Source of the DNA: an uncultured Candidatus Saccharibacteria bacterium
GTDB taxonomy: Bacteria > Patescibacteriota > Minisyncoccia > Phycocordibacterales > UBA12088
Length of the DNA stretch: 64,000 nucleotides
Direction: 5' to 3'
Assembly: GCA_964531785.1 (NCBI GenBank)
Contig: CAZHFF010000004.1
Span: 1,169-65,168 of the forward strand
Shown here: positions 2,399-64,000 of the stretch, piece by piece
How the letters are laid out: each line of letters begins with the position of its first letter
Numbering within the stretch: position 1 is the first letter of the stretch
The notes under the pieces: generated by a model
Told to the model about the DNA's origin: nothing
Seen by the model: only the letters and a program-made list of their open reading frames with translations
Databases searched by the model: none
Position numbers and translations under genes: made by a program

Positions 2399-3337
2399 TT
2401 ATGCACCGGTCACCTCGACCTGCTTGTTCTGTTGGATCGCCCCGAACAGGGTGCAAAGCTCGGCAACGCTCACGAACGGTGTGCAGTCATGACGGACGGA
2501 TGCATGCCACGTGGTACGTGCCTCGTCGAACCTGCGTTGCGCCTCCGGATCCTGCTTGCTCGAAAGCCCGATAAAGCACCGTATCAGTTTCACCATTATC
2601 TCAGGGGGTATATCAAACTGAAGAAAGTGCGAGAGCTCGCGCACAAGCTCGACATGGGCAGGGACCTTAAGCTTGTCTGCGTACGCGAGGAGCACGTTGT
2701 GGCTCGCGAGCGGGTCGAAGGACGAGTGGAGGAACAGCGCCCGTAGTTCCGAGGATATACCGCGGTAGCGTACCCGACGCGCACGAAGCATGGCCTCGCG
2801 CAATTGTTTAAGCGACATATAACGGTGGTATGAGAGCTTCTTATGTGTTTGGAATGTGGTAGTGAGCGGGGTGCGGGCTATTCTGCGTATGCCGGCTCGC
2901 TCAGCGAGTGGAAGGATGACGTGCGGCAGGAAGAGGCGCCTGGTCGCAAGAAAGGTGCTGATACCCACGACCGCATCGACCGGCCAGTCTGCGGCATGAT
3001 CAAGTGCGAGTGTCGCACCGAGCGAGTATCCCACCAAGACCACTGGTCGCCCTGCTGCATAGAACGGCGCGCAGACCGCTTCTATTTGACCGAGCCAGTC
3101 ATCGTATGCAGCTGCGAAATGCACGGCCTCCTCATCGCCATGTCCCTTGAGGAGGACCAGGGAAACGGATGCGCCGCTCAGCATGAGCGCGCGCGCGAGC
3201 GGCGAGAGGTCCTGTACTCCCATGCCGAGTCCATGCAGGAGAACGAACATGGTGTCTCCACGGTCGCATGTTAGCGTGGTGTGCGGCAGTGTCTTGAGAT
3301 AAGCAAGGCCGTCGGGGTCAGGGGTAACGTAACACAC
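2399..3337 (-). CDS. Alpha/beta-fold hydrolase (esterase/lipase-like)
   Basis: FVLLHGLGMG start of fold, nucleophile elbow GYSLGA, later acid/His candidates (SSFDPLAS, LSHFLQFD). True start probably the internal Met of MFVLLHG near 3250. Confidence 0.7.
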   Translation of the reverse strand: MCYVTPDPDGLAYLKTLPHTTLTCDRGDTMFVLLHGLGMGVQDLSPLARALMLSGASVSLVLLKGHGDEEAVHFAAAYDDWLGQIEAVCAPFYAAGRPVVLVGYSLGATLALDHAADWPVDAVVGISTFLATRRLFLPHVILPLAERAGIRRIARTPLTTTFQTHKKLSYHRYMSLKQLREAMLRARRVRYRGISSELRALFLHSSFDPLASHNVLLAYADKLKVPAHVELVRELSHFLQFDIPPEIMVKLIRCFIGLSSKQDPEAQRRFDEARTTWHASVRHDCTPFVSVAELCTLFGAIQQNKQVEVTGA

Positions 3338-3394
3338 CTGAGCATCATACCCACTCCTGTGCCGCCAGGCAACGGCGTTTTCCGCACCGTTAGG

Positions 3395-4561
3395 CTACGT
3401 GATGCTGTCGGGTATGACCGCTACACCATGCGGGTCGGACTCCGCTTGGGCTCCTGCAGAGTAGTAGCGAAAATCTGCGTGTACGTGCAATTCACCGATC
3501 GTAGCTATCCCGGCATACCACATGCCCTTTCTTGTGGCGGCAGCCATGCGAGCGAGCACATCGGAAGCACTGCCGCGCAACGGAACAAGAGCCTCAACAC
3601 CTTCCGCAAGGAGTATGCTGTGTTGTGATTGCATGTAGCGAGCCCGACTGGCGGAGCTTTCGGAAAGTGCTGCGAGCGATCCCATGCCACGGTACTCTTT
3701 CATTGGTTTTTTCCCAACGAGTACGGTCTTGCCGGGAGCTTCATCTGTTCCCGCGAGCCTGCTGCCGAGCATGACCGAGTCTGCGCCAGCCGCGAGCGCT
3801 ATTGGGACATCGCCATCGTGCTCGATACCGCCATCAGCACAGAGCGGCACATCCATACCGGAGAGCGCCTCGCTGCACTCGTAGAGCGCGGTGACCTGCG
3901 GGCATCCTATACCGGCGACGATACGGGTCGTGCAGATCGAACCGGGACCCTGCCCCACCTTTATGCCGTCTGCGCCGGCCTCTGCTAAGCGACGCGCTGA
4001 CTCTGCTTCTGAAATGTTCCCTGCAACGACATCAACCTCCGGGTACCGCTTCTTGAGGGTCGCGATGAGTTCTTGTACCTCGTATGTATCACCATGAGCG
4101 GTGTCGATCACGAGCACATCGACCCCTGCGTCGACGAGCCTTGCGACACGCTCGAGGTCGCCGGTAAATGGGGCGATCGCTGCGCCCGCACGCAACTTCC
4201 CCCGTACATCGACATTCACCGCAGTAGCCCCAGGAATCGCAGCGTTATCAATATGCGCTGCAGTTTCTTTTACTTCTCGCACCGCCCCGGCCTGTGCTTC
4301 TGCGCTGAGTCCGCGATGCAGTATGCCGAGACCGCCAGCTTGTGCCAGAGCGATCGCCATAGGTGCCTCAGTGATACGGTCCATAGCAGCGCTCACGAAT
4401 GGTATGTTGAGCGGCACTCGGCGTGAAAAACGCGTGATAAGGCTCCGGTCGGCTGGTGAGCCACTAGTCTGGCCGGTCTTTAGCCGCACATCGCGGTACG
4501 TGATCGAGAGGCCCTGCTGCTCGAGTTTTGCAAAAAACGGTCGGGAACGGCGCTCCTGCAT
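3395..4561 (-). CDS. guaB: IMP dehydrogenase-family enzyme lacking the CBS/Bateman insert
   Basis: [27 protein letters not shown], catalytic loop [30 protein letters not shown]; only a short linker where the ~120-aa CBS pair normally sits. Confidence 0.85.
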
Positions 4562-4569
4562 GGGCTGTA

Positions 4570-5226
4570 CTATACAGCACGTCGGGACGTGTTGCTATGA
4601 GCGGGTGTGTATGACCGTACCCGGTGCGCATGGGTGCGTCGCTTGCTCAAAGTCTCAATGAACGCGTGCGCGACGGGATACTCCTCTATTGCCGGATGTG
4701 CATACGTCCCAGGCCATGCGTAGAGGCTCGCGTACCCACTTTCAAGGTTTTCGACCGCTAGCGGATGAAGATAGGAGTATACGTAGGTCTCATCGAGCTG
4801 TCCTTTCTGGTCGAACGGAGCTGCCGGGAAGCTTGGCAGCAGCAGTACCATAAGCCCCATCGTACGACCGAGCGAACCGGACAACGCGAGCTCGATATCA
4901 AAGGATACATGGGTATCGTGGACCGTATGCTCCCCGTAGAGCACGACGAGGAGTGTCGACTCGAGCGCGCCGGGAGTACGTTCAAGGTGGAGCCGGTGCA
5001 TGCCTGGAGAACGGTGTGTTCGGGTCGTTTCTGGTGCAAATACGGCATTCACGAAGTATCCGAAGCGTCGTTCGAACTCTTCATGGTACCCACGGTCGTT
5101 CGGGTGAAAGGTGACGAACGTAGAGTGCTCACGGAGCGTGCGTTCATTGGTTGGTGTGGTTAGTTCGACCATAGTGTTGCACACAAGCGGCATGCTCAGT
5201 ATATCGCATGTGCCGGTAGGACTCAT
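4570..5226 (-). CDS. TIR-like domain protein (DUF1863 / ThsB-type pattern)
   Basis: FVTFHPNDRGYHEEFERRFG, then ESTLLVVLYGEHTVHDTHVSFDIELALSG...GLMVLLLPSFP and ESGYASLYAW. This parallels my remembered DUF1863 pattern F-S-F-H-x-x-N-D, DSTVT-LL-G-x-T-x-x-R-K-HVDWE, G-L-L-x-I-x-LP. Start ambiguous (Met1, Met12 or Met19). Stop is 8 nt from guaB ATG. Confidence 0.5.
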   Translation of the reverse strand: MSPTGTCDILSMPLVCNTMVELTTPTNERTLREHSTFVTFHPNDRGYHEEFERRFGYFVNAVFAPETTRTHRSPGMHRLHLERTPGALESTLLVVLYGEHTVHDTHVSFDIELALSGSLGRTMGLMVLLLPSFPAAPFDQKGQLDETYVYSYLHPLAVENLESGYASLYAWPGTYAHPAIEEYPVAHAFIETLSKRRTHAHRVRSYTPAHSNTSRRAV

Positions 5227-5360
5227 GAAGTCCGGAGACGCTTGACAACGGACGTGAAGTGCGCTTAGCTATAAGTATCAAATCCCCCTAGAGAAGCAAC
5301 TAGTTCTAGTTAGATCTTCGAGGTAGGTATTTGAGATTTACTAGAAGTAGTTTCCGTAGC

Positions 5361-5561
5361 ATGCAGCAAGGCACTATCGCTCGGCTCATGGACAAGGGTT
5401 TTGGCTTCATCAAGCGCGATGGAGAGTCAAAAGACCTCTTCTTCCATGCGAACGAGCTCCAGAACTGTAGCTTCCAGGATCTTCGCGAGGGCGACACGCT
5501 TTCGTTCGAGATCGCGGATGGACAGAAAGGACCTCAGGCGGTAAACATCAGCCGAGTCTAA
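5361..5561 (+). CDS. cspA: Cold-shock protein (CspA family)
   Basis: MQQGTIARLMDKGFGFIKRDGESKDLFFHANEL = RNP1/RNP2-type CSD motifs (KGFGFI, LFFH). Start moved to internal Met11 of track ORF 5331..5561; ~100-nt leader typical of csp genes. Confidence 0.9.
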   Translation: MQQGTIARLMDKGFGFIKRDGESKDLFFHANELQNCSFQDLREGDTLSFEIADGQKGPQAVNISRV

Positions 5562-5565
5562 GAAC

Positions 5566-5595
5566 AAAAAGCGCCCTTCGGGGCGCTTTTTGTGT
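5566..5595 (+). terminator. Rho-independent terminator of cspA
   Basis: AAAAAGCGCCC-ttcg-GGGCGCTTTTTGTG; stem 5571-5576/5581-5586 followed by T5. Confidence 0.85.
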
Positions 5596-5650
5596 TACCG
5601 CGCGGTACGGTTCGGTGCGCATAGCAAACATGTTGTGATATACTTGGTTA

Positions 5651-6175
5651 ATGGCAGAGGAGACCGTGCTCTTTTTGGCAACAAGCGTTGCGTCCGAAGA
5701 AGTGTTCGTGGTCGTCTGCTTTGGCATAGCACTGTACGCATACGTAACGGGCGCGTACCGCACGAGCTTGTATTTCATGATCGGCTGTATAGCGACGGTG
5801 GTGTCCGTGTTCAGCCTCAAAACGCTCCTTAAGGTGGCGCGTCCACCAGAGCCACTGATCCCGATCGACGGGTACGGTATGCCGAGCGGTCACGCGACCG
5901 CCATCATGTTCCTCGCGATCGCGTGCTACGTTGCGTTCGTTACTCGCATGTCCCCGCAGGTCCGAACCGTGTACGTTGTGTTTAGCGTATTCCTTGTGCC
6001 GGCTGTTGGTTATAGCCGGGTGTATTACGGCGTTCATACGCCGCTCCAGGTCTTTGCGGGGTACCTACTTGGTATCGTTGTGGCGCTCGGCACAGCCTTC
6101 CTCGTGTATCGTTTCAAGCATTATCGAAGTCCGTCCCACTCGAGCAAGAACTCGTCCAAGAATGCACGCACATAA
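5651..6175 (+). CDS. PAP2-family membrane phosphatase (undecaprenyl-diphosphatase-like)
   Basis: Three PAP2 motifs: KVARPPE (KxxxxxxRP), MPSGH, SRVYYGVHTPLQV (SRxxxxxHxxxD-like); multiple TM helices. Confidence 0.8.
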   Translation: MAEETVLFLATSVASEEVFVVVCFGIALYAYVTGAYRTSLYFMIGCIATVVSVFSLKTLLKVARPPEPLIPIDGYGMPSGHATAIMFLAIACYVAFVTRMSPQVRTVYVVFSVFLVPAVGYSRVYYGVHTPLQVFAGYLLGIVVALGTAFLVYRFKHYRSPSHSSKNSSKNART

Positions 6176-6780
6176 CGGTCCCGACGCTTTGCGAGCTTCT
6201 TTCCGGTGCGTGTGTTCATACGATCAGCAAGGAGGAGTATCTTTTCATAGAAGTGATGCAGCGTCGATGCCGCGTGTCCCCGCAGATATGATCGGTTGGT
6301 GAGACCGGTCCGCACTCTTCCTACAGGGTCGTACAACGGTTGGTTGCGAAAGCCTCCATAAGCGAACGCTCGGGCGATGCCTATTGCACCAAGTGCGTCG
6401 AGACGGTCTGCGTCTTGCACGACCCATCCTTCGAGGGATTGCATGGGGTTCTGTCCGCCCACACCTTTCGCGTACGAAACATTGCCGACGATGTGGCACA
6501 CAGCATCGATCGTAGCCTGGTCAGCCCCACATTCAGACAGGATGGTCCGCGCTCGGAGAGGCCCGACAACGTGGTCGCCGTTATGGAATTTATGATCCGC
6601 TATGTCGTGAAGTAACGCACCGAGCTCGACAATGAACGCGTCAGCATGCTCAGCCTTGCCGATCGCCTGTGCGTACTTCCGCACGCGCTCGATATGCCAC
6701 CAATCATGGCCACTTCCTTCGTCATGGAGCGCCTGTTTGATCGCAGCCGTTACCGATCTCGTTACCACACGCTTGTTCAT
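6121..6780 (-). CDS. HD-domain phosphohydrolase
   Basis: GHDWWHIERV and LLHDIADHK (H...HD metal motif), QDADRLDALGAIG; converges on and overlaps PAP2 gene by 55 nt. Confidence 0.8.
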   Translation of the reverse strand: MNKRVVTRSVTAAIKQALHDEGSGHDWWHIERVRKYAQAIGKAEHADAFIVELGALLHDIADHKFHNGDHVVGPLRARTILSECGADQATIDAVCHIVGNVSYAKGVGGQNPMQSLEGWVVQDADRLDALGAIGIARAFAYGGFRNQPLYDPVGRVRTGLTNRSYLRGHAASTLHHFYEKILLLADRMNTRTGKKLAKRRDRYVRAFLDEFLLEWDGLR

Positions 6781-51439: not shown

Positions 51440-52684
51440 TCATGGAGCTGCGCGGATGAAATAGACTACCCCCCTATGATCATCGGTCATAAAAAATGAG
51501 TTTTCATCATGTTGCAGAAAATCTACGGGGCGACCGAGACGTTCCCTATCTGCAGAAAGGAAGCCGTCCATGAACACTTCGTTCGTGCCGTCGAGTCGCA
51601 CTCTATGTACCGCATATCCCGTGCCTAGCGATTGATCAAAAGATCCATGGAGTGCGACCAAGAAAGACTTATCCAAGACAGGGTGAGCCTGTGTAAAATA
51701 TTTGAGTCCAAGCGGAGCCGACCTCGGAGCAAAAAGTGTGAGCGGGGGAGGAACATCCTCACAGGAGAATTCTCGGTTCCACAGCCCTGTGTCATCGGGC
51801 TTCAGTGCGTCTTCATCCTGGTAACAGTAAGGCCATCCGTAGTGCACGCCCTGCTCAAGACGATACATCGTCTCGTACGGCAGGTTTGGGCCCAAGTGAT
51901 CCACTCCATTGGCGGTCGCGTACAAAACATCTTCTACAAACTCAATTCCTACCGAATTCCGGAGCCCATCTGCATACACGCGTGCATCGCTACCGTCCGG
52001 CGCCATCACCATTACCATGCCTCGTAATTCTCCCGATGGTTGCTCACAAGCATTACAGCCACTCCCGATCGAAATATAGAGTTGATCATCATGGAAAAAA
52101 AGCGTACGTGTGATGTGCCACACCACGCTCTCTTCTCCGGGTGTCTGCGTATTAGGAAATGTTGCGATAATCTGTCCTTCCCCTGACGGCTCGAGATCGC
52201 CAGGAACATATGGGTAACGAATAAGGTGCTCTGTCAGTGCGAGATAGAGCCAATGATCACCTGTGTCATCAGTATAAAAAGCGATGCTGTTGGGGCCGCG
52301 AAGTCCAGACAGGTAGGTGTGCTTTTCGGCAAAACGACCACTTTTCTCGTCAAACCCTCCGAGAATGTGCACTGCTCCCTGACGAGACAGATTGTAATCG
52401 ACAAGGTCAGGAACAAAAATGCGGTCATCCGGGCTGCGTGCTAAAAATCGCGCTTTTCCTAATCCCTCTGCGGCAACCATTATTTCAAATGGCTCTGCAA
52501 TCCGGTAGGTAATCGTTTCCCCGTCTTCAAATGAAACAGTTCGAGCGGAAAGTGTTCTTAGGGGCGATATTATCTGGTGCGTCTCTACGAAACTCTTCTC
52601 ATTTGAAAATATAATCGAGTATACAAACCATATAGTGACGACACACGCGACGATCGCAATTATAATGAAGGGGTGTTTGTGCAT
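51440..52684 (-). CDS. PQQ-dependent sugar (glucose/sorbosone) dehydrogenase, beta-propeller
   Basis: N-terminal TM; GLRNSVGIEF, NGVDHLGPNLPYETMYRLEQGVHYGWPYCY. Confidence 0.75.
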   Translation of the reverse strand: MHKHPFIIIAIVACVVTIWFVYSIIFSNEKSFVETHQIISPLRTLSARTVSFEDGETITYRIAEPFEIMVAAEGLGKARFLARSPDDRIFVPDLVDYNLSRQGAVHILGGFDEKSGRFAEKHTYLSGLRGPNSIAFYTDDTGDHWLYLALTEHLIRYPYVPGDLEPSGEGQIIATFPNTQTPGEESVVWHITRTLFFHDDQLYISIGSGCNACEQPSGELRGMVMVMAPDGSDARVYADGLRNSVGIEFVEDVLYATANGVDHLGPNLPYETMYRLEQGVHYGWPYCYQDEDALKPDDTGLWNREFSCEDVPPPLTLFAPRSAPLGLKYFTQAHPVLDKSFLVALHGSFDQSLGTGYAVHRVRLDGTNEVFMDGFLSADRERLGRPVDFLQHDENSFFMTDDHRGVVYFIRAAP

Positions 52685-52766
52685 GGAATAGGTAGATTAC
52701 GGAATGACAGGCAGTAAGCCATCTAAGAAGCAGGATGATTCTGAAAGAGAAGAAACTGAGCTTGGT

Positions 52767-53369
52767 CTAATGCCGCTCCGCAACGATATATCCACAACCC
52801 TCGGCTCCGACTTTTGCTGAATGTACATGGCCTCTCGGAATCTCCTTTTCGTCGCCAGCTTTCAATGAGAAATCAGTAAGTGCTCCACCAATTACCGTCT
52901 TTATCCGGATTCTACCGGAAAGTACGTGTGACTTTGTATCGAAATCGTGTTGGTCCTCCTCGCCCACCTCTTCCGTCTCGGTATCACAGGCATATACGTT
53001 GTCGTATCCTTCGGCCTTTAGGCGATCGATAGTTTCCTGTTCGTCGTGAATAAGGAAATCGAGCTGCTCCTCCGGAATGCCCACAGACTTCCCATGCGCG
53101 ATCGCTTCTGCCCACGTGGACTTGTCGGAATACTTGATCCAAAAGTACTTATCCTTGAAAACAACCAATACTTTATCGTCGCCAGTCTGCCAGAAGTGGA
53201 TGTACCACGGACCATCAGCGAGATAGCCACCGATCTTAAGAGCGGTTTCTTCATCAATCAAAACATTATGAAGCGTCCAGCTTCCATCCTGCCAAGTCCT
53301 CTCAATCTTTAAGGATTGAAGAATGCTTGAATCTTTTAGACTATTCTCAATGATCGTTCCTTTAAGCAT
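52767..53369 (-). CDS. Two-domain protein with C-terminal cupin barrel
   Basis: C-terminal SHVLSGRIRIKTVIGG...GDEKEIPRGHVHSAKVG; N-terminal ~110 aa unassigned. Confidence 0.6.
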   Translation of the reverse strand: MLKGTIIENSLKDSSILQSLKIERTWQDGSWTLHNVLIDEETALKIGGYLADGPWYIHFWQTGDDKVLVVFKDKYFWIKYSDKSTWAEAIAHGKSVGIPEEQLDFLIHDEQETIDRLKAEGYDNVYACDTETEEVGEEDQHDFDTKSHVLSGRIRIKTVIGGALTDFSLKAGDEKEIPRGHVHSAKVGAEGCGYIVAERH

Positions 53370-53371
53370 TG

Positions 53372-53920
53372 TTATTCAATGACGTATTCCCAGCCCGGCT
53401 GCCATGACTTTGTCTTGCGCCAATCCTCAGCAAGCGCTTCTTTCCAAGTTTTCCCTTTGAGGAGCACGTCGAACGAAAGTTGCGGTGCTTTGTGTCCGAC
53501 AATAGCAACATGCTTACCGTCGTAGCTCTGTTTGAGGAATGTAAGAAACTCTGCAATACGAGTTTTTACATCTTCATAGCTCTCCCCGTTAGGAAACGGC
53601 TTTTCAATACATTCCTTTTCCTGCATTGGCTCGACAATATCTGAAGAAGCTCCGTTCAAGTCCCCGTAATTGCATTCGCGCAACCGCGCGTCAGGAATGA
53701 TCTCGTGCACACCCTCCCACGCTAGCTTTGCCGAGTCGTGAGCACGCTTCAGATCGGAGCAAAAGACGACATCAAACTTTTTGTCCTTCGTCTGCTCCTT
53801 CAATGCGACCGACTGCTGACGACCAAGTTCTGAAAGCTCGACATCTTTCCAGCCGGAGGAAATATGTTGTTCGTTGTCAGTAGTGGTGCCGTGTACGAAG
53901 TAAGTGATTTGTATTGACAT
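53372..53920 (-). CDS. Histidine phosphatase (phosphoglycerate-mutase-like) family protein
   Basis: FVHGTTTDN (RHG-type motif with V for R), FCSDLKRAHDSA, VAIVGHKAPQ. Confidence 0.7.
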   Translation of the reverse strand: MSIQITYFVHGTTTDNEQHISSGWKDVELSELGRQQSVALKEQTKDKKFDVVFCSDLKRAHDSAKLAWEGVHEIIPDARLRECNYGDLNGASSDIVEPMQEKECIEKPFPNGESYEDVKTRIAEFLTFLKQSYDGKHVAIVGHKAPQLSFDVLLKGKTWKEALAEDWRKTKSWQPGWEYVIE

Positions 53921-54136
53921 TCTATCATTCTAACAGAAAAGACCGCTCTTTAGGAGCGATCTTTTCTGTCTGGATACCGGACTCGCCGGGTATGCAATGT
54001 GCGGAATAGTGCCTGGAGATTACGATCTGATCTGCTGACTTCTTGGACAAGTTCGTGTCCATGACTGGTTCTCAAAACTATTCCTCCTAAACAGCCGTTT
54101 TGGGCGTTTAGGTAGGTCTCACATGACTGCTGGCTG

Positions 54137-54272
54137 ACTCGGTCTCGAATGTACCACGCAAGGCACCGTAAGGGTTCTTCCAGATCCCTTCTACTCCTTA
54201 GTTGAGGCGTCTCGGTCTGTAGGTCATTTTTCCGAGAATCGTACGGTCAGCCATTTTCACCCGTCTCGGTCT
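54137..54272 (+). repeat. Direct repeats CGTCTCGGTCT (x2) plus partial ACTCGGTCTC
   Basis: Exact 11-mers at 54208-54218 and 54262-54272 (54-nt spacing), partial copy at 54137-54146, all in a 600-nt non-coding stretch. Confidence 0.6.
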
Positions 54273-54408
54273 CCTATACTTTACAAACTTTACACCCCCT
54301 CCCGCCTTTTTAGTTGGCGTTATGTGAACTATATGAGTCGACTTTCCGACGATTCTGTTTCGTAGCGATGATTTGCGGGCTTTTCCACACGTACGCGAAA
54401 AACGCGGG

Positions 54409-54416
54409 TGTATAAT
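54409..54416 (+). promoter_or_regulatory. -10 element TGTATAAT (no good -35)
   Basis: TG at 54409-54410 directly followed by TATAAT 54411-54416. Confidence 0.35.
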
Positions 54417-54461
54417 GCAGATACAAAAGGAGTTCGCTCCAGCTGGTGACCGCTTAAATGA

Positions 54462-54505
54462 GGGCCGGCGCATTCTCGAAAGAGATGCGCGGGCCCTTTT
54501 GCTTA
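54462..54505 (+). terminator. Intrinsic terminator/attenuator 20 nt upstream of the ParB-methyltransferase ATG
   Basis: GGGCCGGCGCAT-tctcgaaagag-ATGCGCGGGCCC (12 bp, one mismatch) followed by TTTTGCTTATT. Confidence 0.6.
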
Positions 54506-54524
54506 TTCACTAAGCAAAAATGAC

Positions 54525-55799
54525 ATGAATCATTCATTGCAGTGGCGGACGGAAACACGCAAGGTCGACGACCTCGTGCCGAACGCCAAGAACCCCCGCT
54601 CCCTCTCGGCTAAGCAGAAGGCTGACCTTGAGGCGAGCATTACCAAATTCAATCTCGTCGAGATCCCTGCCGTGAACACGGACAATCAGGTGCTTGCGGG
54701 ACACCAGCGGCTCAAGATCATGAAAGCCCTCGGACGCGGACAGGAAGAAATCGATGTCCGAGTCCCAGACCGGACGCTGACCGAAAAGGAGTGCGAGGAG
54801 TACATGCTCCGCTCCAACCGCAACACCGGATCGTGGGATATGGAGATGCTCCAGGCCTTCGATACGGAGTTCCTCCTCGACATCGGCTTCGACGACGCAG
54901 ATCTCTCCGACATCTGGGACGATGTGCTTGAAATCGAAGACGACGAGTTCGACGAGGAGAAAGAGGTTGAGGAAGCCAAAGACACGGACATTAAGCCCGG
55001 TGACCGCTTCCAACTCGGCAAGCACAAGCTCATCTGCGGCGACTCGACCGACGAGACAGTCGTAAAGACGCTCACGGGCGAGGATCTCGCTGATCTTGTC
55101 TACGTAGACATCCCCTATAATATCGGCCTCGATTACGACAAAGGAGTTGGCGGAGACAAGACGTATGGCGGCGATGTCGATGACAAGAAATCGAAGCCGG
55201 AGTACCGCAAATTCGTGGAGACGCTGATGCGAAACTCGCTCATGGTCTCGGCGAAGGACTCACACCATATCTGGTACCACGATGCTCGCTATACCGGAAT
55301 GATGCAGTCTCTCTTCGAGGAGGTCGGCATCAAGTACAAGCGCACCTGCCTCTGGATCAAGAATGGCATCAACCCAACCCCGAAGACGGCATTTTCGAAG
55401 ATGTACGAACCTGCCCTTTACGGCGTGAAGGGACGACCGTACCTCTCAGAGAAGCACACCAAGTTCGGCGAGATCTTGAACAAGGAGATCGGTATCGGCA
55501 ACGCGACCATCGACGACATCACAGACATGATCGACATCTGGCTTGCGAAGCGCGACGCGGGTCAGGACTACGAGCACCCGACACAGAAGCCATTGTCGCT
55601 CCATGAGCGGCCGCTCTCCCGTTGCACCAAGATCGGTGATGTGGTCTTGGATCTCTGCGGTGGTAGCGGCTCAACCTTGCTTGCATGCGAGCAGATGCGC
55701 CGCCGGGCCTTATTGGTCGAAAAGAACCCAGTGTTTTGTCAGGTAATCGTCAACCGCTATGAAAAATTCACCGGAGACAAAGCAGCCAAGATCGATTAA
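54525..55799 (+). CDS. ParB-like nuclease domain fused to beta-class N6A/N4C DNA methyltransferase (phage type)
   Basis: NPRSLSAKQ and LAGHQRLKIMKALG (ParB/Srx fold); motif IV VDIPYNIG precedes HPTQKP and motif I LDLCGGSGSTLLACE. Confidence 0.85.
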   Translation: MNHSLQWRTETRKVDDLVPNAKNPRSLSAKQKADLEASITKFNLVEIPAVNTDNQVLAGHQRLKIMKALGRGQEEIDVRVPDRTLTEKECEEYMLRSNRNTGSWDMEMLQAFDTEFLLDIGFDDADLSDIWDDVLEIEDDEFDEEKEVEEAKDTDIKPGDRFQLGKHKLICGDSTDETVVKTLTGEDLADLVYVDIPYNIGLDYDKGVGGDKTYGGDVDDKKSKPEYRKFVETLMRNSLMVSAKDSHHIWYHDARYTGMMQSLFEEVGIKYKRTCLWIKNGINPTPKTAFSKMYEPALYGVKGRPYLSEKHTKFGEILNKEIGIGNATIDDITDMIDIWLAKRDAGQDYEHPTQKPLSLHERPLSRCTKIGDVVLDLCGGSGSTLLACEQMRRRALLVEKNPVFCQVIVNRYEKFTGDKAAKID

Positions 55800-56553
55800 G
55801 CGCGGCGATGTGATCGCCCTCGGGGAGCACTTCCTCATCTGCGAGAACGCCGAGACGTGGTGGTTCGGCAACTACATCCAGGGCGAGGTCGACATGATCC
55901 TCACCGACCCTCCCTACGGGGTCGACTACGCCGCTTCCAAGCGCGGACTTGGCAAGATCGCCAAGGACAAGGACATCGAGAACGATGGATTCATGGACGA
56001 CGAGGTATACATCGACTTCTCGCGCCGCTGGCTTGAGGCGGTCGTACCGTTTCTTGCCGCGAAGAACAGCGTCTACGTCTTCAACTCGGACAAGATGATC
56101 TTCGCGCTTCGCGAGGCGTTCCTCGAGGTCGGACTGAAAGTAGCCCAGCTCATCGTGTGGGTGAAGAGCCAGCCCGTCATCGGCCGTCTCGACTACCTGC
56201 CCCAGCACGAGCTCATCATGTATGGCTGGAGCGGGACGCATGAATTCCGCAGAGGCAAGGACAAGTCGGTGGTGTTCGAGAAGAAGCCGCGCCGGAGCGG
56301 CCTCCACCCGACAATGAAGCCAATTCCACTCCTTCGCAGGCTTATCTTGAATAGCACGCGGGTCGGCGACACAGTGTATGACCCGTTCGGCGGAAGCGGG
56401 TCGACGCTCATTGCGTGCGAGCAGACGAAGCGCCGGTGCATCATGGTCGAGATCGATCCGGAGTACTGCGAGACGATCGTGAAGCGGTGGGAGAAGCTGA
56501 CCGGACATGGCGCGCAAATCGTCAGATCGGACCCTGAAGAGCCAGCGGTCTAA
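55759..56553 (+). CDS. Beta-class N6A/N4C DNA methyltransferase
   Basis: Motif IV ILTDPPYGVDY, HPTMKP, motif I DPFGGSGSTLIACE. C-terminal 65 aa clearly paralogous to the upstream gene; 41-nt overlap. Confidence 0.85.
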   Translation: MKNSPETKQPRSIKRGDVIALGEHFLICENAETWWFGNYIQGEVDMILTDPPYGVDYAASKRGLGKIAKDKDIENDGFMDDEVYIDFSRRWLEAVVPFLAAKNSVYVFNSDKMIFALREAFLEVGLKVAQLIVWVKSQPVIGRLDYLPQHELIMYGWSGTHEFRRGKDKSVVFEKKPRRSGLHPTMKPIPLLRRLILNSTRVGDTVYDPFGGSGSTLIACEQTKRRCIMVEIDPEYCETIVKRWEKLTGHGAQIVRSDPEEPAV

Positions 56554-56941
56554 GGAGAAACTCCTTGGCTTCCTGCGAGACTCCGGCAATATCTCATACT
56601 CGTGCAAGCGGGCGGGTATTTCGCGCGAGGCGTACTATCTGTGGCGAGAAGATGAGGTATTCGCACTTGAGGCTGATGAAGCCATCGCATTCGGCAAGGA
56701 CTTCGTGAATGATTTGGCGCACACGCAACTCATTCAGAACATCCAGCAGGGCAACATGGGTGCGGTGAAGTTCCAGCTCGCGAGCTGCCATCCCGACTAC
56801 CAGCCAAGGAAGCCGTGGCCTCGAGAGCCGAAGGATCTGCTACCGCCTGTTACCGAGATCCACATTCACGAGATCGATCCAGCAAAGGTTAGAGTTGAGC
56901 GGGCTGAGGTGCGGAAGGACGCTGAAGAGAAGAGGCAATAG
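56507..56941 (+). CDS. Phage small-terminase-like helix-turn-helix protein
   Basis: KEKLLGFLRDSGNISYSCKRAGISREAYYLWREDEVFALEADEAI matches the N-terminal HTH pattern of small terminase/HTH phage proteins; 47-nt overlap with upstream gene. Confidence 0.55.
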   Translation: MARKSSDRTLKSQRSKEKLLGFLRDSGNISYSCKRAGISREAYYLWREDEVFALEADEAIAFGKDFVNDLAHTQLIQNIQQGNMGAVKFQLASCHPDYQPRKPWPREPKDLLPPVTEIHIHEIDPAKVRVERAEVRKDAEEKRQ

Positions 56942-57659
56942 TTTCGGCTATGGCCTTCCAGTCCGACTTTGACATCCCGAAGGATGTTGCGTGAGGGACC
57001 ACGGCATACACGGTGTCGTGGCCTTTCGCTATGTGAAGTTTCTTCGGGATGACTTCTTGAAATGGAACACTGGCGATCTGTTGCCAGTCTGAGAGATAGG
57101 TGCGGGAGTAAAAGAACACGAGCTTGGGTCTGTGTTTTTGGATAAGAGTGTGGAGTTCGCGGACGCGCTGTGGTTTGTATGTGACAAGATATTCCTTCCG
57201 CGTAGTTAGTCCTTCAACGCCAGAATCCGCATACAACCAGTCGCTTTCCTTGATCGACTTTGACGGAAGCGGCATAAGTTCGAGAACAGCGTGATCAGCG
57301 GTCTTTCGTCCGAACTGCTTGATTTGGTACTGGCGTATCTCTTCAAGGGTCGGTTCCCCTGTCTGGAGATACAGCTGAATATATATGAGCGGGCGGTATG
57401 TTGGCTGGGTCGGCGCATTCTCCTCGAACCAATAGACATGGCCGGGATCTACTCGAAGGTCTTCGTATATATCAAAAACGGCCGCATGGGCGGTCGCTTT
57501 AAAACGCTCGAAAAGAATCTCGTTCGTTTCGTTGTATCCCTCTTCCATGCCAACGAACCACGTATCGCTAGCGAGGTTGCCGTATCCCCAGAAGTTCTTT
57601 ATTCGTTCTCGGATTAATACCTTGAAGTCGTCTCCGAACGGAGACTGATTGTTGTTCAT
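56889..57659 (-). CDS. 256-aa protein, possibly uracil-DNA-glycosylase-superfamily fold (tentative)
   Basis: TWFVGMEEGYNE at residues ~33-44 where UDG family 4/5 has GE(A/C)PG. LELMPLPS mid-protein. RPKLVFFYSRT and VVPHATSFGMS near the C-terminus where UDGs have HPS. Pattern only, not verified. Confidence 0.3.
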   Translation of the reverse strand: MNNNQSPFGDDFKVLIRERIKNFWGYGNLASDTWFVGMEEGYNETNEILFERFKATAHAAVFDIYEDLRVDPGHVYWFEENAPTQPTYRPLIYIQLYLQTGEPTLEEIRQYQIKQFGRKTADHAVLELMPLPSKSIKESDWLYADSGVEGLTTRKEYLVTYKPQRVRELHTLIQKHRPKLVFFYSRTYLSDWQQIASVPFQEVIPKKLHIAKGHDTVYAVVPHATSFGMSKSDWKAIAETIASSLQRPSAPQPAQL

Positions 57660-57663
57660 ATGC

Positions 57664-57799
57664 CCTTAGCCGGTTTTTTATTTGGGCGGGTAGCAGAAAG
57701 CCCGCCACTGGGAGCTCTATCCTTTCGGACAGAACGCAGGAGTTTCCCCCTACGACCGGCTAAGGAACCCCAATGACGGGTTTTCTACTCCTTAGCCGG
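57664..57799 (-). promoter_or_regulatory. Alternating triple 10-mer RNA element overlapping the SD of 56889..57659
   Basis: Plus strand: CCTTAGCCGG (57664-57673), CCGGCTAAGG (57756-57765), CCTTAGCCGG (57790-57799). In the minus-sense mRNA the middle copy can pair with either outer copy. The 3' copy contains AAGG 4 nt before the ATG. Confidence 0.55.
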
Positions 57800-57922
57800 A
57801 TTTTTTGCGCCATACCCTAGGGTTGCTAGGGGTTAGGCGACTATATTCAATTGTACGAGGACAATGATAGCAAAATTGCTACCGTTTGGCACTCTAGCTT
57901 ACATATGAAGGGTTGCGAAGTG

Positions 57923-58609
57923 CTACTTACCAACAGCTTCTGTTTTCACAGCGCCATCCTTGGTTAAAGCCCACCCCTGCATATAACTGAACAGGATTCC
58001 TGTTATCTCAAAAAATGCACGCACTGCTTCTAAATAATCGCGCTCCTTAATAAAGCCATCAGAAGCGCTGACCTTCATATGGAAGGTCCCATCGCTCTCG
58101 AGTTTTCCAAGGCTGTTGAAGATATGCTTTTCTGAGAGGTGGACATATCCTGATGTATGTTCGTAAACACTTGTCATAACTGGATACTTTTCTGCCAATT
58201 TATTAACCAAGTATCGATCGGTCATAGGGTTCCCATCTCTGTCTTTTAATTTCCGGATATGCGTGCCTCTGAGCACTTCCGTAGAAAATTCATGAGGATC
58301 CTCTGCAAGCCACGCGCCATGGAATCTAAGTAGATTATCTAATTGCAACCTCAAGAGTGGTGCTGCCGCAACGAAATTCTTGCGTTCAATTAGGTCGCAA
58401 AATCCAGTGAGCAAGCAGAGGGACCGATTAAGTACTGCTATGGCAAGCAGGTCTAGCGCATACATATTGCCCGATGCGGCTTGCATAATCTTCACCCCCA
58501 TCTTTTGATGCTCATCAGCAATTTTTCTCAGATTCTCAACTGATGTATTTACATTATTCATTTCTCCCTGGGTTCTTAAAAAGTTGAACGGCTTCTTTCT
58601 GCTTGTCAT
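57923..58609 (-). CDS. Helical partner protein of the KAP NTPase (unknown family, loosely DUF5677-like)
   Basis: Overlaps the KAP 3' end by 56 nt (ATG 58609) or 8 nt (ATG 58561, ATGAATAA, preceded by GGGAGAA). Region AAPLLRLQLDNLLRFHGAWLAEDP...SGYVHLSEKH; no catalytic motif recognised. Confidence 0.7.
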   Translation of the reverse strand: MTSRKKPFNFLRTQGEMNNVNTSVENLRKIADEHQKMGVKIMQAASGNMYALDLLAIAVLNRSLCLLTGFCDLIERKNFVAAAPLLRLQLDNLLRFHGAWLAEDPHEFSTEVLRGTHIRKLKDRDGNPMTDRYLVNKLAEKYPVMTSVYEHTSGYVHLSEKHIFNSLGKLESDGTFHMKVSASDGFIKERDYLEAVRAFFEITGILFSYMQGWALTKDGAVKTEAVGK

Positions 58610-60602
58610 TCAGCTTTTCGACATCCTCGTCAGAAATTTCATTTACTAGCTTTGTTACTTCCTCGAGAGAGTAAAGGCCAGAAATAGAATCAAGATTTAT
58701 GGTGTTGTAGTTTCCGTTGGTTGAAAGTACCCTCCCAACGCATTTCTGTAGAAATTCCAGCAAACCATCACGCGTAGATATCCATCCCGCAATAAATTCA
58801 GATACCGCCTCTGGGGATGACCAATCCTTCCAGCGATAAAGGATAGCTAGTGCGTGCTCCTCCTTCTTAAGATTGCCGCTCTTGGCAGACTCAGCAGTCT
58901 TCTCAACCATTATCTTCTTTAGTTCTTCGGTGGTTGCGTCATCGAGCTTAATCTCGTTAGATCGCTTAGCATCTAGCATGACGCTCAATAAATGCACCGG
59001 GTGATAGATTCTCGTACTTGCCTTGAATAGATCTATCGCAAACTGATCGCGCTCGCTTTCCGGAATAGTCAATAACGCGTGGTATCCGAATCGCATGATT
59101 TGAGTATCGACATCATCGAAATCGAAAATTGCCTCGCGCTGCTCTCTGATTTCGTCTTCAAGCTCCCAGAGCGTTAGTAGTATATTCCGTACTTTATCCT
59201 TGCCTAAATCTGATCGACGGACGAGTAAGCGGCGCAAAATACGCCGGATATTCTTATCTTCTTTTGCCTTCAGAATTGCCGACTTGAATCCTTCGGCATC
59301 GCCTGCGATGTCAATAATTTCTTGGACACGACCTTCAGACACTTCCCCAGTTGGAACTCCAAGCTGGAAGTAGAATTTGAAACGATTCGGATGCGTAATC
59401 ATCATCTCTTTTTCCTGTGTATCCTCGCTATAAGTGCCACCGCCACCAACTCGAGGGAATAAATATCCGCAAACTTCATTGATTGCATCCCGTTCCTTTG
59501 GAGAAGTGAATTCCTCTAGTAACGCTTTGTAACGTTCCATTCTCGCTTGTTGTGCTCTGCTGTCATCACCAAAGAAGCTCTTCGCTTTATAAGACTGGAT
59601 GAAAATATCTTCGTTCGCTGGAATGGCGTTATAGAAAAGCGGGGCAAAAACTCTGATTGCTTCTATGCCGAGGAAATCAATCTTGTTAACATCTGCTGTT
59701 CCGACAACAGACCAATCGAGCCGCAACGAGCTTATGTAACGTTTGATATCTCTGACGGACTTAAAAAGATCTCCGAATCCGTGATAAAGGAGCTCTGACC
59801 ATCGGTCTTCTTCGCGCTTTCCATCCAAGATCGGTTTATCCTGGTAGAACTTACCGATAGTCTTATCTAGCTCCGTAAAGAGAATGGTGCGAATATCATC
59901 CTGATCAGGCATTGGGAGCGTGAACGCGACTTGGACGATTTTTCTCAGATAATCTCCGCCGATTATTCCTGCCTCTTTATCTGTAATTCTCTTCTCGACC
60001 TGTTCTCGATCGTATGAAAGAACGAATATAGTGTTCTGGAAGTTGGCAGTCAGTTTGACGAGCTTGAATATGAGTTTTGTTTCCCTTTGATCGAGACGAT
60101 CTATATCATCGATAACAACTACGATTTTCTTATTGACCTTAGACAGCTCCCTGTCTAAATCTCTCCGCAAACTTTGCAGAGATTGGTCTTTAGTGAAAAG
60201 GCTGAAGAAGAATCTAAGTAACTTTCCCCAGAAGCCGAGTTCGTCTATTAAATCAATGTTGGCAATCTTTGCCGCATAATTTCTTACCTTCTCTCCCAGA
60301 CCTTTACCCACTACATCTTCAACGGCGCTAGAGAGCTGGATGAAGAAGTCTCGCAAGAGAGATGCTTCATCTGAGAAATGCCATGGGTTGAATATGAAAT
60401 ATGATGCTTTGTCGGCATCAATGTCGTTTAGAATGAGATTAATAAAGGATGTTTTTCCTGAACCCCAAGCTCCTTCAATCCCAATTACAAAACTCTCTTT
60501 CTCTTCAAAGTCGTTTATGGTTTCGGCGATTTTTTTCGCTAAGGGAGCTCGCCTTAATCTATCCTGCTCTGTATTAGCAATTGGATAATCAAGAAGAATC
60601 AT
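58554..60602 (-). CDS. KAP-family P-loop NTPase
   Basis: EQDRLRRAPLAKKIAETI, Walker A GIEGAWGSGKTSFINL, FNPWHF, Walker B KIVVVIDDIDRL, SYDRE; long helical C-terminal region. Confidence 0.85.
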   Translation of the reverse strand: MILLDYPIANTEQDRLRRAPLAKKIAETINDFEEKESFVIGIEGAWGSGKTSFINLILNDIDADKASYFIFNPWHFSDEASLLRDFFIQLSSAVEDVVGKGLGEKVRNYAAKIANIDLIDELGFWGKLLRFFFSLFTKDQSLQSLRRDLDRELSKVNKKIVVVIDDIDRLDQRETKLIFKLVKLTANFQNTIFVLSYDREQVEKRITDKEAGIIGGDYLRKIVQVAFTLPMPDQDDIRTILFTELDKTIGKFYQDKPILDGKREEDRWSELLYHGFGDLFKSVRDIKRYISSLRLDWSVVGTADVNKIDFLGIEAIRVFAPLFYNAIPANEDIFIQSYKAKSFFGDDSRAQQARMERYKALLEEFTSPKERDAINEVCGYLFPRVGGGGTYSEDTQEKEMMITHPNRFKFYFQLGVPTGEVSEGRVQEIIDIAGDAEGFKSAILKAKEDKNIRRILRRLLVRRSDLGKDKVRNILLTLWELEDEIREQREAIFDFDDVDTQIMRFGYHALLTIPESERDQFAIDLFKASTRIYHPVHLLSVMLDAKRSNEIKLDDATTEELKKIMVEKTAESAKSGNLKKEEHALAILYRWKDWSSPEAVSEFIAGWISTRDGLLEFLQKCVGRVLSTNGNYNTINLDSISGLYSLEEVTKLVNEISDEDVEKLNDKQKEAVQLFKNPGRNE

Positions 60603-60694
60603 GGTTTTGTAATTTTAGCATTTTGAGCAAAGTTGAGCATTTCTTGTACTACGGTCTAATCTTTTCGAGTTATCAACAGTTTATTTTAGGAGCA

Positions 60695-60713
60695 GATATC
60701 ATAATATGATATC
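60695..60713. promoter_or_regulatory. Perfect 19-nt palindrome (candidate operator) between divergent KAP and methyltransferase genes
   Basis: GATATCATAATATGATATC, 9 nt upstream of ATG 60723; contains -10-like CATAAT/TATGAT on both strands. Confidence 0.5.
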
Positions 60714-60722
60714 CTTTACCAT

Positions 60723-63389: not shown

Positions 63390-63957
63390 TGTAACCGAGC
63401 AACCTCTTGTTTTCATCAGAGAGCTTCTCTACGAGTTTATAGTCCTCCAGAAGCTTCTTAAGATCCTTGATTCGCTTGGTTATATCAGTGGCACGTCTAA
63501 CGGTTAGCATCCTTGTTACGCAAGCATCAACATCTATATTCTGATTGATGATTGGTTCAGGACTTGCCAGAAGAAAAAGATCGGCACCAAGAATTTTAGC
63601 GAGCTGCTTTAGTTCTTCGTTCGTATAGAACTGACTCGGCCAGCTATCTCGTTTATTATCGTTGGCTTCCTTCGAAAGAAGCACAGCATTACGAACACTC
63701 AGAGGGTATAGCCACCGTGATGGCAAAAGATGGTCGACAGCCCACGATTTCCTTTCTTCAAATTTAAGCGGCTTGCCCGTTTTGAAACACTTGCCTTCAA
63801 ATCTCTCAAAAAGGGCTTTCAGATCGAGGCGCTCATTGGTGCCGGCAAGTAACAGTTCTGCTGTGCGACGACGAGCTGCAGACTCGTGCAACTGCTCTTT
63901 AGTTCGCTTCGGATTCAAACTTGCATTAATCACCGCCTTACATCCACGGCATTCCAT
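63382..63957 (-). CDS. HNH endonuclease (candidate restriction partner)
   Basis: CFKTGKPL...WAVDHLLPSRW...NAVLLSKEANDNKRD (C..C / DH / N / N HNH pattern) plus N-terminal CRGC; 3' ends overlap the methyltransferase by 8 nt. Confidence 0.75.
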   Translation of the reverse strand: MECRGCKAVINASLNPKRTKEQLHESAARRRTAELLLAGTNERLDLKALFERFEGKCFKTGKPLKFEERKSWAVDHLLPSRWLYPLSVRNAVLLSKEANDNKRDSWPSQFYTNEELKQLAKILGADLFLLASPEPIINQNIDVDACVTRMLTVRRATDITKRIKDLKKLLEDYKLVEKLSDENKRLLGYIK

Positions 63958-64000
63958 CTGCTTCTCAAGAGGACCCCATCCTGTGTGACCACTAAAGGCA

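Follow-up and report, generated by a model that had tools for sequence, protein, structure and literature searches.

The locus and the identity of the 218-aa reading frame

The DNA analysed here is a stretch of 64,000 nucleotides from the genome of an uncultured Candidatus Saccharibacteria bacterium (contig CAZHFF010000004.1, positions 1,169 to 65,168; hereafter the window), in which an open reading frame (ORF) of 218 aa related to the TIR-like ThsB proteins of the Thoeris defence system directly precedes guaB, the gene for an IMP dehydrogenase (IMPDH). An initial annotation, made from the window itself, had pointed to this adjacency and to an 8-nt gap between the two genes, and the ORF coordinates bear out both (gap 4562-4569, 'tacagccc'); both lie on the minus strand, a point that had been left unstated. 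The gene order around them is PAP2, CSD (cold shock), thsB-like, guaB, alpha/beta hydrolase and beta-propeller, and the genes within about 10 kb of the thsB-like ORF are guaB, CSD, PAP2, HD, YbjQ, Clp protease, alpha/beta hydrolase and beta-propeller. Alternative starts within the ORF are M12 (5193) and M19 (5172), and homology to its relatives begins at residue ~27-33. The coordinates of all features are collected in Table 1.

The motif strings on which a TIR-like (ThsB/DUF1863) assignment had been proposed are all found in the translation, namely FVTFHPNDRGYHEEF (residues 37-51), STLLVVLYGEHT..HVSFDIE (91-112), GLMVLLLPS (124-132) and SGYASLYAW (163-171). The assignment itself is upheld by transitive homology, although the direct Pfam score is sub-threshold and Asp stands in place of the catalytic Glu. 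When compared directly, the protein scores 13.1 bits against PF08937 (ThsB_TIR; E 0.13), below the gathering cut-off of 21.2 bits, and only residues 89-127 align. Direct searches against PADLOC, NCBIfam, PHROGs and PDB (phmmer) gave no matches, and a word-indexed homologue search of 5.8 billion proteins retrieved the protein itself alone. An exhaustive phmmer search of 1.84 billion cluster representatives returned 29 matches at E<=1e-3, the best non-self matches being P0122 (E 5e-29) and P0123 (E 2e-28), at ~35% identity over nearly the full length. In an alignment of 24 relatives and the window protein (A1, 25 members), PF08937 is matched by all 24 relatives (best 8.5e-20), and the PADLOC models ThsB and PDC-M50B by 22 and 23 of the 25 members, respectively. 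The A1 profile finds the ThsB crystal structures 6lhy and 9b7d in the PDB at E 3.4e-6 and retrieves 1850 further proteins; among the matches listed, every top one is annotated PF08937. Conversely, a family hidden Markov model (HMM) built without the window sequence and run against the six-frame translation of the window has the 218-aa ORF as its sole match (E 4.4e-33), aligned over HMM positions 6-174 of 188 (169/188). An AF2 model (43-sequence alignment; mean pLDDT 68) has an alpha/beta core with a pLDDT of 85-91 and, in the betaC/alphaC region, a strand (90-97) followed by a helix (105-116); Foldseek searches with it place TIR proteins at the top of the PDB matches, weakly (best E 6e-3). By transitive homology, the 218-aa ORF is a real but highly divergent ThsB/DUF1863-family gene or ex-gene.

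Following strand beta-C, the core motif reads K-H-V-D-W-E-I in the family and T-H-V-S-F-D-I in the window protein (A1 alignment), which is altered at K105, D108, W109 and E110, all four, and carries T105, F109 and D110. The columns of W109 and E110 are at least 90% conserved in A1, and the window protein has F and D there. A profile alignment matches the family 'hvdWeI' with 'VRYEI' of Bacillus cereus ThsB (BcThsB), placing the family Glu opposite the BcThsB Glu, and the substitution E85Q in BcThsB abolishes Thoeris defence and NAD depletion (bioRxiv 10.1101/2021.01.06.425286). Glu occupies position 110 in 23 of the 24 relatives of the unbiased A1 set and in 135/136 of a larger set biased by the fishing pattern RKHVDWEI. 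The scan for loci used this pattern and YYHxDDQxY, by which decayed copies like that of the window are unrecoverable, and since this biases the larger residue census, the Glu statistic rests on the A1 set. Over the whole protein, 33 of the 75 family columns conserved at 90% or more are kept (44%), compared to 92-100% in the other members. Taken together with the profile alignment, the altered motif leads us to infer a loss of catalytic activity in the 218-aa protein. The GC content of the gene (0.563) is like that of its neighbours (0.52-0.60), and it is therefore not a fresh acquisition.

Partner genes in the family and the missing effector

In order to place the gene in its family context, 80 genomic loci encoding relatives were recovered, in 74 of which ORFs could be placed. 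The loci nearest to the window protein are all from Patescibacteria (Saccharibacteria, Adlerbacteria, Paceibacterota, Taylorbacteria and Nomurabacteria). A same-strand gene starts within 120 nt downstream in 59 of the 74 loci, often with a 4-nt overlap, and in 36 loci, archaeal ones included, the directly downstream gene belongs to a single family of transmembrane (TM) proteins; this is so in every close Patescibacteria locus where it was callable (L007-L009 and L011-L015). With an HMM of this TM-partner family, a member is present in 41/74 loci within two genes, the 36 directly downstream included. The members are 160-243 aa long (mostly 203-243), have a single N-terminal hydrophobic helix and share the invariant residues T85, R86, S105, F110, R114, L141, N142, R146, P147 and W152 (L013 numbering). 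As the family has no match in Pfam, PADLOC or PDB, it is not SIR2/SLOG, Macro, DUF2270 or DUF6650. The partner in 11 further loci belongs to a cluster of TIR-containing proteins; among those tested, two of 684-693 aa add SLOG cluster 2 (PF18163), while one of 388 aa has TIR only. At some loci the partner is a second ThsB-like gene, and at least two family members occur in 22/74 loci.

By analogy, this recurring downstream partner is the architecture of Thoeris-like sensor-plus-effector cassettes, and the ~210-aa TM protein is presumed to be the membrane effector. A recent survey lists ~29 effector types, with diverse TM proteins and domains of unknown function among them (bioRxiv 10.64898/2025.12.03.692087). 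The TM partner may represent a candidate unclassified Thoeris-type membrane effector spread across Patescibacteria, many bacterial phyla and archaea.

A separate arrangement was observed at L017 (6515-8596) and L041-L045 (Niallia, Neisseria, Haemophilus and Aggregatibacter), where the ThsB relative is followed by a protein of 675-693 aa which, as tested in L017 and L042, has both a TIR_2 domain and SLOG cluster 2 (PF18163). In the Neisseria, Haemophilus and Aggregatibacter loci a second ThsB-like gene of ~200 aa comes next, which gives a three-gene TIR/TIR-SLOG/TIR order unlike the SIR2-SLOG ThsA.

At the window locus the partner position is taken by guaB. The initial annotation had remarked on the absence of a SIR2, SLOG or TM effector nearby, and this is confirmed by the neighbouring genes, by a six-frame partner search and by a PADLOC scan: tblastn of all 59 partners against the six-frame window gave nothing better than E 0.02, the TM-family HMM gave nothing better than E 3.5, and no ThsA, SIR2 or SLOG was found among the 60 window ORFs scanned with PADLOC, where the only matches were methyltransferases and a PifA-like KAP NTPase around 54-64 kb. 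The arrangement by which Thoeris is recognized, thsB in an operon with an effector gene, is thus lacking here. The HD-domain gene (6121..6780) was considered as an effector and rejected, being separated from the thsB-like ORF by two opposite-strand genes and having no assignable family in the PADLOC scan of window ORFs.

The PADLOC matches fall in a low-GC block at 52000-64000 (GC 0.40-0.47, compared to ~0.57 elsewhere) that contains defence or restriction-modification (R-M)-type genes and is probably a horizontally acquired defence island, ~50 kb from the thsB-like gene. It also encodes a 191-aa protein, of which the segment matching PADLOC Cas9 models is taken as an HNH nuclease region.

The IMP dehydrogenase, its synteny and its expression signal

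The description of the downstream gene as a CBS-less IMPDH with intact catalytic motifs also stands. PF00478 matches the 388-aa protein in full (model positions 2-345 of 345, E 5.5e-120), a search for PF00571 (CBS) in the protein gave no match, and the Cys loop, ADGGI, RGMGS, the flap SRARYMQ (with the Arg-Tyr dyad) and AEGVEA are intact in the translation and common to the closest relative, P0003; the Cys loop and flap motifs are the catalytic ones of IMPDHs. The models for GMP reductase, GuaB1 and GuaB3 score far below those for IMPDH with this protein, and its best PDB IMPDH matches are at ~1e-90. Its score against the NCBIfam equivalog TIGR01302 (362.5 bits) is below the cut-off of 481.5, with the match split in two stretches, presumably because the CBS region is missing. 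P0003 is a protein of 505 aa with CBS and 78% identity over the barrel; BLASTP aligns the two in two segments (query 3-106 to 5-109 and 115-387 to 226-498), so that eight residues of the window protein (107-114) stand for the 116-aa Bateman region (110-225) of P0003. Among the matches listed (120), all 119 non-self IMPDHs carry PF00571 and are 485-543 aa long; the loss of CBS is therefore specific to the window lineage. The Bateman domain is the ATP/GTP/(p)ppGpp allosteric site of IMPDH, and a clean deletion of 116 aa should therefore leave a catalytically competent enzyme without nucleotide allosteric regulation. Such a natural deletion could inform how dispensable this regulation is in reduced genomes.

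Within 6 kb of the thsB relatives, an IMPDH gene was found by tblastn at 0/80 loci. Seen from the side of guaB, contigs L002-L005 share the order PAP2-CSD-guaB-hydrolase-propeller with the window, lack the TIR gene and retain the CBS domain in their guaB (P0003). The full order on the P0003 contigs is PAP2, CSD, guaB, truB, alpha/beta hydrolase, a 152-aa gene and beta-propeller. In two more distant relatives guaB is stand-alone and monocistronic, with neither TIR gene nor CSD synteny. As judged from gene order, the window guaB is the syntenic, orthologous housekeeping IMPDH, and because related contigs share the synteny without the TIR gene, the thsB-like gene is present as a lineage-specific gene within a housekeeping neighbourhood that is otherwise conserved. 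Of the two readings first offered, these results (no IMPDH at any of the 80 loci, no TIR gene in the syntenic contigs) favour the chance placement of an orphan TIR gene before a housekeeping guaB and speak against a pair that would functionally connect TIR chemistry with purine/NAD metabolism. A survey of whether the two genes are neighbours in other genomes had also been suggested; it was run from the TIR side and on the guaB relatives examined, and the adjacency did not recur. As to a second guaB, which had been raised as well, no other IMPDH gene is found within the 64-kb window.

Other differences between the window and the related contigs were noted. The truB gene, which in the latter lies between guaB and the alpha/beta hydrolase gene, and the 152-aa gene, which lies between the hydrolase and beta-propeller genes, are absent from the whole window (window 2399-4561 compared to L002 10001-14120). 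Upstream of PAP2, the window has HD, YbjQ and Clp protease genes where the related contigs have PBP and alpha-2-macroglobulin.

At the DNA level, solid homology to the TIR-less relative (78%) extends from the CSD gene to window position 5298 and is followed by short collinear matches of 9-29 nt, with the anchors TTGTCAAGC, GGCACATGC (5214-5206) and CGACGTGCTGTATAGT (4584-4569) in this order. Between the last two lie ~621 bp of extra DNA in the window, which begin with gaTATACTgagcATG (M12) and end about four codons or less from the end of the ORF. As aligned, the extra DNA would be essentially the thsB-like coding sequence alone, with boundaries that are tentative because the anchors are short, and it may represent either an insertion in the window lineage or a deletion in the relative. 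No direct or inverted terminal repeats were found around 4450-5350.

The signal preceding guaB is shared with the relatives. A TATAGT hexamer (4574-4569), which contains the stop codon TAG of the TIR ORF (4572-4570), lies 7 nt before the guaB ATG at 4561, and the same TATAGT-N7-ATG precedes guaB in the TIR-less relative L002 (9997-10002, ATG 10010), while the more distant relatives L086 and L088 have TAGGGT-N6-ATG and TAAGGT-N6-ATG, respectively (~3989-4003 each). No Shine-Dalgarno sequence is visible before the guaB ATG, either in the 8-nt gap or in the preceding 3' end of the TIR ORF. Leaderless transcripts typically have a -10 hexamer that ends 6-7 nt ahead of the start codon, and the -10-like hexamers in these four Patescibacteria suggest leaderless guaB mRNAs. 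In the window lineage, guaB probably has a leaderless mRNA of its own that does not depend on the TIR gene, and as the TIR-less relative has the same element, it appears to keep an ancestral, independent expression signal. The caveat voiced at the outset, that this hexamer could give guaB its own leaderless transcript, has thereby gained weight, with its function judged from conservation. A gap as tight as 8 nt does not speak for an operon where the second gene is preceded by a promoter of the leaderless type. A scan for sigma-70 promoters and terminators found none of consensus type in 5227..5330, with a site count not above that of shuffled sequence, and no terminator between the thsB-like ORF and guaB. 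An Rfam search of 3000-6000 found no element or riboswitch (one sub-threshold sraL match, E 0.083, was dismissed), and no tRNA was found across the window.

Table 1. Coordinates of features in the window and of related two-gene cassettes (L numbers denote other genomic loci)
Feature	Position	Strand	Remarks
thsB-like (TIR-like) ORF, 218 aa	4570..5226	minus	Divergent effector-less member of the ThsB/DUF1863 (PF08937) TIR-like subfamily
guaB, 388 aa	3395..4561	minus	IMP dehydrogenase catalytic core without Bateman (CBS pair) domain
Degenerate active-site motif HVSFDI, residues 106-111	4894..4911	minus	D110 codon at 4899-4897
guaB promoter-like element, TATAGT and 7-nt spacer before ATG	4562..4574	minus	Overlaps the TIR stop TAG
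CBS-deletion scar, residues 107-114 (AAIPGATA) of guaB	4220..4243	minus	From BLASTP segments against P0003
Extra DNA relative to TIR-less relative, ~621 bp, inferred extent	4585..5205	minus	From DNA comparison; weak boundaries
Divergent intergenic region, cold-shock gene to TIR ORF	5227..5330		Shares homology with the region between CSD and guaB in the relative
Cold-shock (CSD) gene	5331..5561	plus	CSD match, E 1.8e-19
Type II methyltransferase (MTase)	54525-55799	plus	Low-GC block
PifA-like KAP-family NTPase, 682 aa	58554-60602	minus	PADLOC PifA, E 1.7e-87
Double methyltransferase, 888 aa	60723-63389	plus	Low-GC block
191-aa protein	63382-63957	minus	Short internal match to PADLOC Cas9 models, E ~1e-9
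ThsB and TM-partner cassettes	L007:2598-3868, L008:5938-7232, L009:2043-3247, L011:1915-3161		
ThsB and TM-partner cassettes	L012:3547-4758, L013:5968-7178, L014:78-1335, L015:6013-7270		
ThsB and TM-partner cassettes, 28 other loci			For example archaeal L018, L022 and L039

Interpretation and relation to known systems

The 218-aa ORF is likely to be an orphaned ThsB-family gene that has no effector and whose active site is degenerate. Its position ahead of a housekeeping guaB, which has a conserved promoter-like element of its own, would be accidental. The gene would be the remnant of a two-gene Thoeris-like cassette, since its subfamily provides the first gene in most of the other genomes sampled and the usual second gene encodes the unannotated ~210-aa TM protein, less often a TIR-containing protein, frequently with SLOG. 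In the window lineage the effector gene would be gone, leaving the thsB-like gene alone between the cold-shock gene and guaB, and the 8-nt spacing would result from the location of the extra DNA and would not be a sign of coupling. With the catalytic motif decayed, its Glu changed to Asp, and the effector lost, the protein would no longer make a TIR signal nucleotide and might at most keep a fold-dependent, non-signalling role. We also infer the functional independence of the thsB-like gene and guaB. The finding is then ordinary, and the gene adds a decayed member to an already known family.

Several points weigh against this interpretation. An effector gene or a second guaB could be encoded elsewhere in the genome, outside the 64-kb window. 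The thsB-like ORF is still open across 218 codons despite its heavy divergence, and is full-length compared to its homologues, while by a rough estimate stops would make up ~3.6% of codons in random sequence with the GC content of the gene. This suggests some continuing selection, so that 'dead relic' may be too strong a term; on account of this argued residual constraint the gene is not called a dead pseudogene here. Asp retains a carboxylate and may allow residual or altered catalysis, and guaB may be co-transcribed by read-through from a TIR promoter. Finally, two lineage-specific changes, the extra TIR gene and the loss of CBS, coincide at one locus. This coincidence is a mild oddity rather than remarkable, because truB and the 152-aa gene also differ and the neighbouring proteins of the window and its closest relative are only 47-88% identical.

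Some of these points would also agree with a ThsB-like sensor that still functions on its own, with Asp as the catalytic carboxylate or as a phage-sensing component, an unlinked effector elsewhere and no relevance of guaB. Besides the intact full-length ORF, the protein retains its fold-determining residues and has a confident AF2 core, 15 of the 74 homologous loci have no tightly linked downstream gene, and multiple thsB genes per system are common, as in the 22 loci with at least two family members. We nevertheless consider such a sensor unlikely, as the change of all four core-motif residues is unique among the ~24 unbiased relatives, no effector is present in the 64-kb window, the immediate neighbours are housekeeping genes and the defence island of the window is ~50 kb away.

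A functional TIR-IMPDH module is very improbable. In such a module the TIR protein would replace the Bateman regulator of GTP synthesis, or the IMPDH would itself be the effector and shift the NAD/purine pools on infection. The 8-nt same-strand spacing is what such a module would have, both proteins belong to families that bind NAD-type ligands, and the window lineage alone combines the extra TIR gene with the loss of CBS. Yet the adjacency did not recur at any of the 80 homologous loci or among the guaB relatives examined, the promoter-like element of guaB is ancestral and either predates or ignores the TIR gene, the IMPDH has lost its sole domain able to sense a nucleotide signal, and the catalytic motif of the TIR protein is degenerate. 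A full-text literature search likewise gave no paper joining IMP dehydrogenase with an anti-phage TIR domain, and the main text of a systematic survey of TIR systems contains no IMPDH, inosine or guaB (bioRxiv 10.64898/2025.12.03.692087).

Slimmer still is the chance that the Bateman-less IMPDH has recruited the thsB-like protein as a trans partner, either as an NAD-binding regulatory subunit or as a phage-triggered switch of GTP synthesis. This idea is kept alive because the ORF stayed open and was gained or retained in the very lineage that lost CBS, and it would, if true, be a new kind of pairing between a TIR protein and a metabolic enzyme. Least credible is a spurious or unrelated ORF with an accidental resemblance to ThsB, which would agree with the Pfam score of 13.1 bits against a cut-off of 21.2 (E 0.13), the lack of direct PADLOC, NCBIfam, PHROGs and PDB sequence matches and the weak Foldseek E-values (best 6e-3), but which is effectively refuted by the phmmer homology to P0122 (E 5e-29 in the 1.84-billion-protein library), the PF08937 membership of all relatives and the match to 169/188 positions of a family HMM lacking the window sequence (E 4.4e-33).

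Read as an orphan ThsB-family gene in front of a housekeeping guaB, the locus exemplifies how fragments of defence cassettes decay and come to lie beside housekeeping genes in the small genomes of Patescibacteria. Of greater interest, though found outside the window, is the widespread two-gene cassette of ThsB and an unannotated TM protein.

Among known systems, the nearest relatives of the window protein (31-36% identity) belong to PDC-M50, a PADLOC candidate system of which they represent component B, and to the ThsB/TM cassettes, the closest of which come from the same superphylum (Saccharibacteria, Adlerbacteria, Paceibacterota and Taylorbacteria). In these cassettes the TM partner is the next gene downstream, in many cases overlapping by 4 nt, at the place where the window has guaB, and the window protein itself matches no PADLOC model. 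BcThsB of type I Thoeris (Bacillus cereus MSX-D12; PDB 6LHY/9B7D) is a member of the same family via transitive homology, with a similar size (a single domain of ~190 aa) and the same betaC/alphaC region 'VvVLiG..T..r.WV.wEI'. The window protein differs from it in falling below the Pfam threshold, in having Asp as the equivalent of E85 and in the changed flanking K, D and W, and its gene differs from type I Thoeris in having no adjacent ThsA (SIR2-SLOG) or other effector and in lying outside any defence island. The guaB product, in turn, resembles CBS-less IMPDHs, (beta/alpha)8 barrels of ~390-400 aa in which a short linker replaces the Bateman domain. Residues 17-385 align in one stretch with 7-394 of the Cryptosporidium parvum IMPDH (PDB 3FFS, 400 aa), several other IMPDH chains of ~360-400 aa also align end-to-end, and the Borrelia burgdorferi IMPDH (PDB 1EEP, 404 aa) is matched over its C-terminal part. 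Both 3FFS and 1EEP lack CBS by nature, and many of the short chains are engineered delta-CBS constructs. The window enzyme differs from these in that its loss is lineage-specific, with a closest relative that keeps CBS; as a CBS-less IMPDH it is a known kind of enzyme.

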